IMG/VR virus record: IMGVR_UViG_3300029119_000021
Length of the DNA: 36,712 bases
Direction: 5' to 3' (one strand)
Source: a virus
Every line of letters starts with the position of its first letter. Position 1 is the stretch's first letter. The notes beneath the pieces were generated by a model. That model saw only the letters and a program-made list of their open reading frames with translations, was not told the origin of the DNA and made no database searches. This document shows, piece by piece, positions 16,266-17,223 of the stretch. Position numbers and translations under genes: made by a program.

Positions 16266-16463
16266 ATGAATGATAGAGCAAAATTTGTAGAGGTAAGCAA
16301 AGAACAGCAAGATAGAATAGAACTAATTAGAAGTTCATTTTCTAATATGTATGATGTAATAGACCATAATTGCAAACCTAGCAGAGAAACATCACTCATA
16401 CTAACAAAATTAGAAGAAGCTCAATTTTGGGCAATAAAAGGAATAACAAGGGAGGTTCAGTAA
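16266..16463 (+). CDS. Hypothetical small protein (65 aa)
   Basis: GGGGGG RBS; track ORF; no function recognised. Confidence 0.6.
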   Translation: MNDRAKFVEVSKEQQDRIELIRSSFSNMYDVIDHNCKPSRETSLILTKLEEAQFWAIKGITREVQ

Positions 16464-16464
16464 T

Positions 16465-16737
16465 ATGGGAAGCAAAGAATTTATTGAGAAGTGTAAAGAA
16501 ATAGTAAAACAATATGCACTTGAACATTTAGACAAGAGTGATAATATTCCAGAGTTTGAGGTGTTTGATGTTTGGTATTGTAAAACATTACAAAACCATA
16601 AAGCATTATTAAGTACAACTCTATTCGATGGTATGTATTATGAATGCACATACAATGGAGATAAAAAAGAATTGTATTTCGACGCATATAAAAAATTTGA
16701 AAATAAATGTATCAAATTAGAGGAGGAGGAAAAATAA
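16465..16737 (+). CDS. Hypothetical small protein (90 aa)
   Basis: Tightly packed after the previous gene; GGGAGG RBS. Confidence 0.6.
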   Translation: MGSKEFIEKCKEIVKQYALEHLDKSDNIPEFEVFDVWYCKTLQNHKALLSTTLFDGMYYECTYNGDKKELYFDAYKKFENKCIKLEEEEK

Positions 16738-17223
16738 ATGGAATTTAAAAAAGCATATGAAGCATTAAAACAAGGCCATAAAATAAAAAGAGAACATTGG
16801 AGAGGTTATTGGGTAAAAGAAAACGAAACAATAACAATGCATTGTAAAGATGGAAGTGTAATACCATTTTTAGAAACAGAAGATATATTTGTAGATTTAG
16901 ATAATATAGTTGCTGATAATTGGGTTGTCTGTGATGATATTGATGAGTCTACATTAGATTTACAAACATTTACATTTGGAGAAGCAATTTCTAATTTAAA
17001 AAGAGGAAAAAGAGTACAAAGAAAAGGTTGGAATGGTAAAAATCAATACATAGAATTAGCAACTAATATTAGTTACAAAAACGTTAATGATGAAATAATA
17101 AATGCTGAACATGATGCAATAGGAAATAAAGCAATAGCATTTGTAGGAACATCAGGAGTTCAATTAGGTTGGTTGGCAAGTCAAGCTGATATGCTTGCAG
17201 AGGACTGGAAAATAGTTAATTAA
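16738..17223 (+). CDS. Tandem DUF2829-like protein (Tad2-family candidate)
   Basis: The second half, FTFGEAISNLKRGKRVQRKGWNGKNQYIEL...GWLASQADMLAEDWKIV, matches the DUF2829 signature. The first half, FKKAYEALKQGHKIKREHWRGYWV...DNWVV, is a degenerate second copy. Confidence 0.6.
   Translation: MEFKKAYEALKQGHKIKREHWRGYWVKENETITMHCKDGSVIPFLETEDIFVDLDNIVADNWVVCDDIDESTLDLQTFTFGEAISNLKRGKRVQRKGWNGKNQYIELATNISYKNVNDEIINAEHDAIGNKAIAFVGTSGVQLGWLASQADMLAEDWKIVN

Follow-up and report, generated by a model that had tools for sequence, protein, structure and literature searches.

Proteins that sequester nucleotide signals, known as sponges, are the main known route by which phages get past the Thoeris, cyclic-oligonucleotide-based antiphage signaling (CBASS) and pyrimidine cyclase (Pycsar) systems, and the range of ligands that they bind is still being mapped, mostly in phages of Bacillus, E. 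coli and Pseudomonas. Here we analyze a cassette of three small genes (positions 16,266 to 17,223) in the IMG/VR virus record IMGVR_UViG_3300029119_000021, whose whole stretch of 36,712 nucleotides we refer to as the window. The genes encode, in order, a 65-aa protein of the Acb2 family, a 90-aa protein of the DUF6275 family and a 161-aa protein with two DUF2829 (Tad2-like) domains. Among the closest described systems, Tad2 was found by Yirmiya et al. to form a tetramer of two V-shaped dimers interlocked via helix alpha1, with pockets between non-dimeric protomers. Li et al. assigned the glycocyclic ADP-ribose (gcADPR) pocket of HgmTad2 to W21, N22, G23, W87, L88, S90, T92 and D93, of which N22, G23 and D93 come from both protomers. 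In the Acb2 family, the homolog Acb2_43 is a hexamer that binds 3'-cyclic ADP-ribose (3'cADPR) and inhibits type I Thoeris (Hadary et al.), and Sequestin (PF21825), discovered via its fusions to Tad2 and Acb4, is a verified sponge for 3'cADPR (Tal et al. 2025). Islands of anti-Thoeris (Tad) genes have also been noted earlier in Blautia prophages.

Our results support a model, to which we assign a probability of about 0.7, in which the cassette is a variable anti-defense island of a temperate phage of gut Clostridia and its small proteins most likely sequester nucleotide alarm signals. Capture of Thoeris-, CBASS- or Pycsar-type signals would mean that the host effector is never switched on. The original prediction, made from the letters of the window, had called the insert a candidate anti-defense island, and that proposal is strengthened by the close similarity of the 65-aa protein to an active Acb2 homolog and by the recurrent presence of DUF6275 beside three verified sponge families.

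The three open reading frames (ORFs) abut one another, with gaps of 1 nt and 0 nt, and all three have a purine-rich ribosome-binding site upstream. They interrupt the portal-scaffold-capsid order, the ORFs being exactly as had been claimed (Table 1), and the terminator at which the cassette was said to end is present: the hairpin with its T-run is the sole terminator-like site in 15900-17500, where 0.4 are expected. That the cassette is an accessory insert follows from two related loci. In L102, whose scaffold is 62% identical to that of the window, the cassette is absent, the gap between portal and scaffold is 133 bp and the portal-scaffold-capsid set is complete. In L100, which is essentially the same phage as the window because its scaffold is 99% identical, the same slot holds genes for an Acb2-like protein (65 aa), a DUF4406 protein (98 aa) and a DUF6275 protein (86 aa), with no Tad2; the window and L100 share an identical ~90-nt 3' flank that includes the terminator, though the last cassette gene differs. 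The locus without a cassette and the near-identical one with a different gene set together mark a true variable accessory island, and the three loci share the hallmarks of an anti-defense island, namely gene content that varies between conserved flanks and known anti-defense families inside. An equivalent slot is used on an unrelated backbone in P0034, a Longicatena caecimuris prophage, in which a tandem Tad2 protein 77% identical to that of the window is encoded after the portal and a minor head protein and before the scaffold and capsid, with a different upstream neighbor. A PADLOC scan of the cassette proteins gave no match, as expected because the cassette genes are not defense genes.

Two other small genes were seen in comparable settings. 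The gene just upstream of Tad2 in the P0034 context (L009 5696-5956) encodes an 86-aa protein without a Pfam match, and the upstream small protein in Enterococcus phage IME197 (L002 3627-3896) has 89 aa and is zinc-ribbon-like, with weak Lar/Ogr-type matches. These differing neighbors suggest that the portal-scaffold slot collects diverse accessory genes.

The 65-aa protein has a close tested relative. The two upstream proteins had originally been left unassigned, which no longer applies to this one: it matches PF24729, the Acb2/Tad1 hairpin, at 1.7e-11 (44.6 bits; cut-off 27), and Acb2_43 in the Protein Data Bank (PDB; 9ptq, 'Acb2 homolog 43') over residues 11-60 (E=0.002). Its identity to Acb2_7, which also has 65 aa, is 76% over 63 residues, with 92% positives. 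According to Table S2 of Hadary et al., Acb2_7 is positive in plaque assays against type I Thoeris and against the E. albertii cyclic GMP-AMP (cGAMP) CBASS, and negative or unvalidated against other systems; the motif EEAQFWAIK of the 65-aa protein occurs 116 times in the table of Acb2 homologs from the same study, whose Acb2 set thus includes its subfamily. Residues K19 and K55 of Acb2_43 align with R22 and K58 of the 65-aa protein, both of which are conserved. Nearly all of its 774 homologs have 63-65 aa, so the short length is native. Judging from the identity to the tested Acb2_7, this minimal two-helix hairpin of the Acb2 family probably binds 3'cADPR and/or 3'3'-cGAMP and, by analogy with Acb2, it would assemble as a hexamer.

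The 161-aa protein had been described as carrying a clear DUF2829 signature preceded by a degenerate second copy, and both copies are recognizable. PF11195 matched the whole protein in two stretches at 9e-28 (97.1 bits; cut-off 25). With the halves scanned apart, residues 73-161 scored 76.2 bits and residues 1-71 scored 28.2 bits, both above the cut-off, and alignments of the N-terminal and C-terminal halves matched each other in hhalign with a probability of 80-91% (E about 1e-6). The C-terminal domain (C-domain) recovered AcrIIA7/HgmTad2, ModTad2, SPO1 Tad2 and SptTad2 from the PDB sequences at about 1e-11. A structural comparison with Tad2, which together with the profile search had been proposed as a check, agreed: in a Foldseek search, the AlphaFold2 (AF2) monomer model (mean predicted local distance difference test score, pLDDT, 82.8; predicted template modeling score, pTM, 0.59) matched 24 Tad2/AcrIIA7 chains at probability 1.0 and a target-normalized template modeling (TM) score of 0.56-0.75, the matches covering the C-domain only.

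The two domains differ in what they retain of the Tad2 pocket. In the C-domain, W98 N99 G100 and W145 L146 A147 S148 Q149 A150 D151 correspond to W21 N22 G23 and W87 L88 A89 S90 Q91 T92 D93 of HgmTad2, a single T-to-A change, and these pocket residues are invariant in 55 homologs except for A150, which is nearly invariant. The N-terminal domain (N-domain) retains helix alpha1, the W21-x-G23 element (W21 R22 G23) and the terminal D-x-W strand. The GWLA segment is missing from it, the W/L pair being deleted; D53, D55 and N56 stand at the positions of S148, A150 and D151 in the C-domain, and most residues of the gcADPR pocket are lost. This loss of most contact residues, together with a score of only 28 bits on PF11195, would fit an inert remnant or a solubility or linker appendage; the C-domain alone would then work like a usual Tad2 homotetramer, and the duplication would be without functional effect. 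Unrelated N-terminal extensions do occur on Tad2 proteins, including Tad2_73 (158 aa) and forms of 124-136 aa beside DUF6275. We nonetheless consider this alternative unlikely, although it is the one that survives best, because the N-domain is well conserved: mean pairwise identity among homologs is 61% for the N-domain and 73% for the C-domain, ten N-domain residues (F3, K11, G13, K17, W21, G23, C36, K37, G39 and W62) are invariant across the 55 homologs, and this type of N-domain is fused to the C-domain in 27 of 28 viral loci. As judged from its sequence, the N-domain is not decaying and is under selection.

The distribution of the tandem protein points the same way. The architecture is kept down to about 46% identity to the window protein, the best match being 94% identical (uncultured Clostridia bacterium). 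More than 100 full-length homologs have about 160 aa, and the architecture occurs in prophages of more than 60 species-level gut Clostridia genomes, with Blautia, Lachnospiraceae, Eubacterium, Ruminococcus, Dorea and Oscillospiraceae among the groups represented and with a position that differs among phages. Given this spread, the tandem Tad2 is an established but uncharacterized architecture and not a one-off. Our literature search found no paper discussing tandem DUF2829, and none of the 18 Tad2 homologs tested by Hadary et al. is a tandem. Two tandem chains probably pair into a dimer resembling the Tad2 homotetramer, in which the N-domains would serve as built-in partner protomers. Such an assembly would have fewer or asymmetric pockets, with a pocket number and symmetry unlike those of canonical Tad2.

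The second protein belongs to a family of no known function. It matches PF19791 (DUF6275) at 1.2e-33 (115.2 bits; cut-off 22.6) and phrog_918 at 6e-40, and a literature search found no paper naming DUF6275, PF19791, phrog_918 or the motif DGMYYE. What connects the family with anti-defense is its genomic company. We scanned 80 viral DUF6275 loci (+-2.5 kb) with purpose-made profiles anchored by Pfam matches on representatives, and found Tad2, Acb2 or Sequestin within 700 bp of DUF6275 in 31 of the 80 loci (15 of 47 clusters after dereplication), counts that refer to the 80 closest loci of one collection, include related phages and lack a random-gene control. All 40 sponge ORFs in these loci lie within 700 bp of DUF6275. 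The commonest arrangement was DUF6275-Tad2 (13 loci), followed by Acb2-DUF6275-Sequestin (6), DUF4406-DUF6275-Tad2 (3), Acb2-DUF4406-DUF6275-Sequestin (3), Tad2-DUF6275 (2), Acb2-DUF4406-DUF6275 (2), DUF6275-Acb2 (1) and DUF6275-Sequestin (1). In L014-L019, the DUF6275 gene abuts a single-domain Tad2 upstream of terS. From the other direction, 16 of 80 genome loci retrieved with the 161-aa Tad2 query, mostly full-length tandems and the rest single-domain, have DUF6275 nearby.

Fusions extend this association. In one representative, P0355 (192 aa), DUF6275 and Sequestin (PF21825) form a complete fusion, and DUF6275-DUF6275 tandems account for 8 of the top 150 cluster representatives. Because such tandem fusions exist, the DUF6275 protein is probably dimeric. 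DUF6275 thus has one of the sponge features of Tal et al. 2025, being small, phage-restricted and fused or adjacent to known sponges, and it may be a further anti-defense protein, most likely another signal sponge. Three DUF6275 representatives with a PF11195 match were considered as additional fusion evidence and rejected, since in these partial or chimeric sequences just the last third of Tad2 is attached to DUF6275. The identification of DUF6275 with TadIV-1 (T4 Vs.3) was likewise rejected, TadIV-1 being restricted to Straboviridae and without a recognizable domain.

Several further features of these loci deserve mention. Head-to-tail DUF6275 tandems of 158-246 aa, with a more divergent second copy, were seen in P0241, P0242, P0243, P0265, P0284, P0356, P0366, P0382 and P0121. 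DUF4406 (PF14359), a protein of 97-104 aa, is encoded directly upstream of DUF6275 in 13 of the 80 loci (e.g. L021 2182-2493), and in L100 (2783-3079) it fills the place next to Acb2. We found only a passing mention of DUF4406 in the literature and regard it as another anti-defense candidate. In loci without known sponges, small Cys-rich protein families (50-85 aa, CxxC pairs, no Pfam match) are encoded 200-500 bp downstream of DUF6275 (L034 1860-2114, L036 3220-3396, L059 760-909 and L070 3002-3196).

The predicted structure of DUF6275 has no counterpart in the PDB. Neither a sequence search nor a 40-sequence profile found a relative in the PDB. The AF2 model (pLDDT 94.2) has a helix at 3-21 and four antiparallel strands at 33-41, 44-51, 57-64 and 69-76, and a Foldseek search of the PDB with this model gave no fold match (best E=0.03, TM below 0.5); a weak likeness to NTF2-like and designed curved-sheet proteins was not treated as meaningful. 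A search of BFVD returned only uncharacterized phage proteins, including those of Streptomyces, Arthrobacter and crAss-like phages. The invariant residues K46, Y58, E60, T62, Y71 and D73 alternate along adjacent strands, and because of this alternation they would lie on one face of the sheet; K40, K46, K76 and K77 are conserved. This sheet face would carry invariant Lys, Tyr, Glu and Asp residues.

DUF6275 is widespread and mobile with respect to gene order, and this bears on the possibility that it is some other accessory gene that shares insertion hot spots with sponges; it might help in head assembly or packaging, act in lysogenic conversion or superinfection exclusion, or be a regulator. 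There are more than 8,000 candidate members (nearly all of the best 120 at least 80% identical), and a separate count gave 2,075 clusters at 50% identity, from phages of Clostridia, Lactobacillales, Fusobacterium and Actinobacteria, and the gene is recognizable at the nucleotide level, at 69-79%, in Lactobacillus, Enterococcus, Clostridium and Fusobacterium phages. The gene often lies inside modules for packaging or the head: Lactobacillus phage P1 has it between terS and terL, Enterococcus phage IME197 between MuF and scaffold, and the window between portal and scaffold. Such locations would suit this alternative, which also draws on the many loci in which DUF6275 stands alone, on its acidic character and on the lack of a known function for the family. 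However, the position is not fixed: Fusobacterium phage FNU4 has DUF6275 among its lysis genes, in L014-L019 it lies upstream of terS, and the phi29-like Clostridium phage phi24R encodes it at the genome end as gp1, beside the terminal repeat and upstream of DNA polymerase. This variable position argues against a structural role, as does the absence of DUF6275 from L102, in which the structural set is nonetheless complete. The confinement of every known-sponge ORF in the sampled loci to the 700 bp around DUF6275 and the Sequestin fusion in P0355 also favor a link with sponges over shared hot spots, and we judge this alternative somewhat less probable still than an inert N-domain in the tandem Tad2. 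That the tandem DUF2829 protein is instead an AcrIIA7-type anti-CRISPR is very improbable: some of the best PDB matches bear the deposited names AcrIIA7 or 'Inhibitor of Type II CRISPR-Cas system' (9kzr, 8kbi), but Li et al. were unable to confirm that HgmTad2/AcrIIA7 or any other Tad2 homolog inhibits Cas9 and found that HgmTad2 binds gcADPR and cyclic dinucleotides, a view shared by Yirmiya et al., and the gcADPR motif is conserved in the C-domain of the 161-aa protein.

Returning to the proposal that the cassette is a sponge island, several observations weigh against it. For the 65-aa protein, the contacts T4 H5 L6 V7 in strand beta1 of Acb2_43 align with F7 V8 E9 V10 and are not conserved, and the C-terminal strand of Acb2_43 is missing. 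For the tandem protein, the mutual orientation of the domains is uncertain because the pTM of the model is only 0.59. The sole tested member of the C-domain subfamily, Tad2_84 (entry 84 in Table S2 of Hadary et al.), was inactive against all seven systems; this protein (GWNGKNQYIELAT...AIGNKAIAFVG) is a 60-aa truncated gene call without the WLASQxD motif, and because of this truncation its inactivity says little about the abundant gut C-domain subfamily. For DUF6275, the gene stands alone in 41 of the 80 loci, the apparent DUF6275-Tad2 'fusions' look like deletion chimeras, and the protein is acidic overall, with an isoelectric point of 5.0, although the pockets of known sponges are positively charged. 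For the cassette as a whole, the genes belong to the late structural operon and lack a convincing promoter of their own; a promoter scan found 9 sites against 8.2 expected in shuffled sequence and thus no enrichment. Early expression is common among sponge genes, so a late-operon position is unusual. We speculate that it might fit defense systems that are triggered by structural proteins.

The association and structural data also allow a more ambitious version of the model, which we offer tentatively and regard as possible rather than probable. In this version, DUF6275 would be a new phage anti-defense family, most probably a dimeric sponge of unseen fold that holds a nucleotide signal on its Lys/Tyr/Glu/Asp sheet face. 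It would form the core of modular 'sponge islands' that shuffle Acb2, Tad2 (single or tandem), Sequestin and DUF4406, and in the tandem Tad2 a pseudo-heterotetramer would be hard-wired, its pocket number or specificity changed.

Table 1. Positions of the cassette genes, their flanks and other features of the window.
Feature	Position	Strand	Match or remark
Acb2-family (Acb2/Tad1 hairpin) protein, 65 aa, predicted immune-signal sponge	16266-16463	+	PF24729
DUF6275 protein, 90 aa, candidate anti-defense (sponge-like)	16465-16737	+	PF19791, phrog_918
Tandem Tad2-like (DUF2829 x2) protein, 161 aa	16738-17223	+	PF11195, two matched stretches
N-terminal reduced DUF2829 domain, aa 1-65	16738-16932	+	PF11195 with N-half alone
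C-terminal canonical Tad2 domain, aa 78-161	16969-17220	+	gcADPR-pocket motif intact
Portal (left flank), 471-aa ORF	14554-15969	+	P22_portal 2.7e-16, phrog_156 5.7e-23
Portal including out-of-frame tail	14554-16249	+	split by 1-nt frameshift near 15954
Intrinsic-terminator-like hairpin and T-run	17279-17314	+	hairpin 17279-17304, then ATTTTTT
Conserved leader	17310-17387	+	right flank, before scaffold
Scaffold gene	17388-18200	+	weak match, phrog_2303
Major head protein	18219-19031	+	phrog_267 2e-29
Tyrosine integrase	631-1797	-	left end of window
2111-aa ORF, tail region	23280-29615	+	
Endolysin, Peptidase_C39_2+SH3_3	34429-35409	+	right end of window

The boundaries of the insert can be drawn by comparison with the cassette-less L102 (Table 1). 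A 56-aa ORF at 16079-16249 might have counted as a fourth gene of the cassette, but it was rejected because it is the out-of-frame C-terminal tail of the portal. The portal of L102 is one uninterrupted 559-aa ORF whose C-terminal part reads ...TPKGAYDKFAQEQSLEN...MPKQKLLKAIEKMEEEQ..., and in the window an additional base near 15954 shifts the same tail residues into the +1 frame: the 471-aa portal ORF ends with ...TPKRCLR and a stop codon, and the remaining ~95 residues run on in the +1 frame. The split is also present in independent assemblies (L003-L008, L100), and for this reason it is a fixed truncation or a programmed frameshift and not an error of a single assembly. Because the 56-aa ORF belongs to the portal, the insert proper extends from 16250 to about 17309, and homology to L102 picks up again at about 17310. 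At the corresponding place L102 carries a different hairpin terminator of its own, which together with this right-hand boundary makes the cassette the 3'-most part of the terminase-portal unit, directly before the terminator of that unit. The window, L100 and L102 have an almost identical ~75-nt leader (TTAGTCCAAGCATTtATGACTTAAAACTgTATGGGTAAGTGAAG...ACACTTATA) from the terminator to the scaffold start codon, the L102 copy lying at about 3400-3467; as the coding regions of L102 are only ~62% identical, the leader may be a late promoter or regulatory element of the scaffold-capsid operon.

At about 36 kb the window comprises a complete temperate phage, whose host belongs to the uncultured human-gut Clostridia. 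A Pfam match is missing for most of its structural proteins, including the 613-aa putative large terminase. A DNA search of 50,697 phage records found no relative of the backbone, and the only matches to other phages, at 69-79% identity, were to the DUF6275 gene and the Tad2 C-domain. The cassette order of the window also occurs in several human-gut metagenome contigs, one of which is a bacterial contig of 507 kb.

These findings have implications for how phages diversify their sponges. A duplicated Tad2 that is abundant in prophages of human-gut Clostridia could show pocket number and specificity evolving by duplication and degeneration, and near-identical phages that carry different sponge sets in one slot provide a natural comparison. 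DUF6275 is a very conserved and widespread candidate, nominated by the same logic of association and fusion as Sequestin. If it is a sponge, thousands of phage genes would gain a function, and its ligand might point to an immune signal used by gut Firmicutes.

Finally, the cassette can be placed among known systems protein by protein. Relative to Tad2 (SPO1 gp34.65, HgmTad2/AcrIIA7, ModTad2 and SptTad2), the C-domain has the same fold, about 30-35% identity and the GWNG and WLASQxD gcADPR-pocket motifs. Its short beta2-beta5 insertion is closer to that of SPO1 Tad2 and ModTad2 than to that of HgmTad2, and the C-domain lacks the long insertion from which HgmTad2 and SptTad2 build their cyclic-dinucleotide pocket. 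Whereas characterized Tad2 proteins are single-domain homotetramers of 80-105 aa with two pockets, the window protein is a 161-aa chain with two DUF2829 domains, the first of which is shortened and has lost most of its pocket residues. The 65-aa protein shares the hairpin signature R-E-x-S ... T-K-L-E-E-A ... A-x-K with the Acb2 family; it is equal in length to Acb2_7 and shorter than PaMx33 Acb2 and Acb2_43, and the N-terminal strand residues with which Acb2_43 holds 3'cADPR are not conserved in it. DUF6275 resembles Sequestin before its characterization, as a small, phage-restricted family without a function that occurs beside or fused with known sponges; however, Sequestin is all-alpha and DUF6275 is predicted to be a helix and a four-stranded sheet, with no similarity in sequence or fold between the two. 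Like the anti-defense islands collected by AntiDefenseFinder and the Tad clusters of Blautia prophages, the cassette brings several anti-defense genes together within 1 kb, varies between conserved flanks and belongs to the prophages of gut Clostridia. In contrast to those islands, it sits inside the structural block, between portal and scaffold, and includes the uncharacterized core gene DUF6275. The island is thus of a known kind, a sponge or anti-defense island, that combines a widespread and uncharacterized Tad2 variant with DUF6275 as a new candidate.

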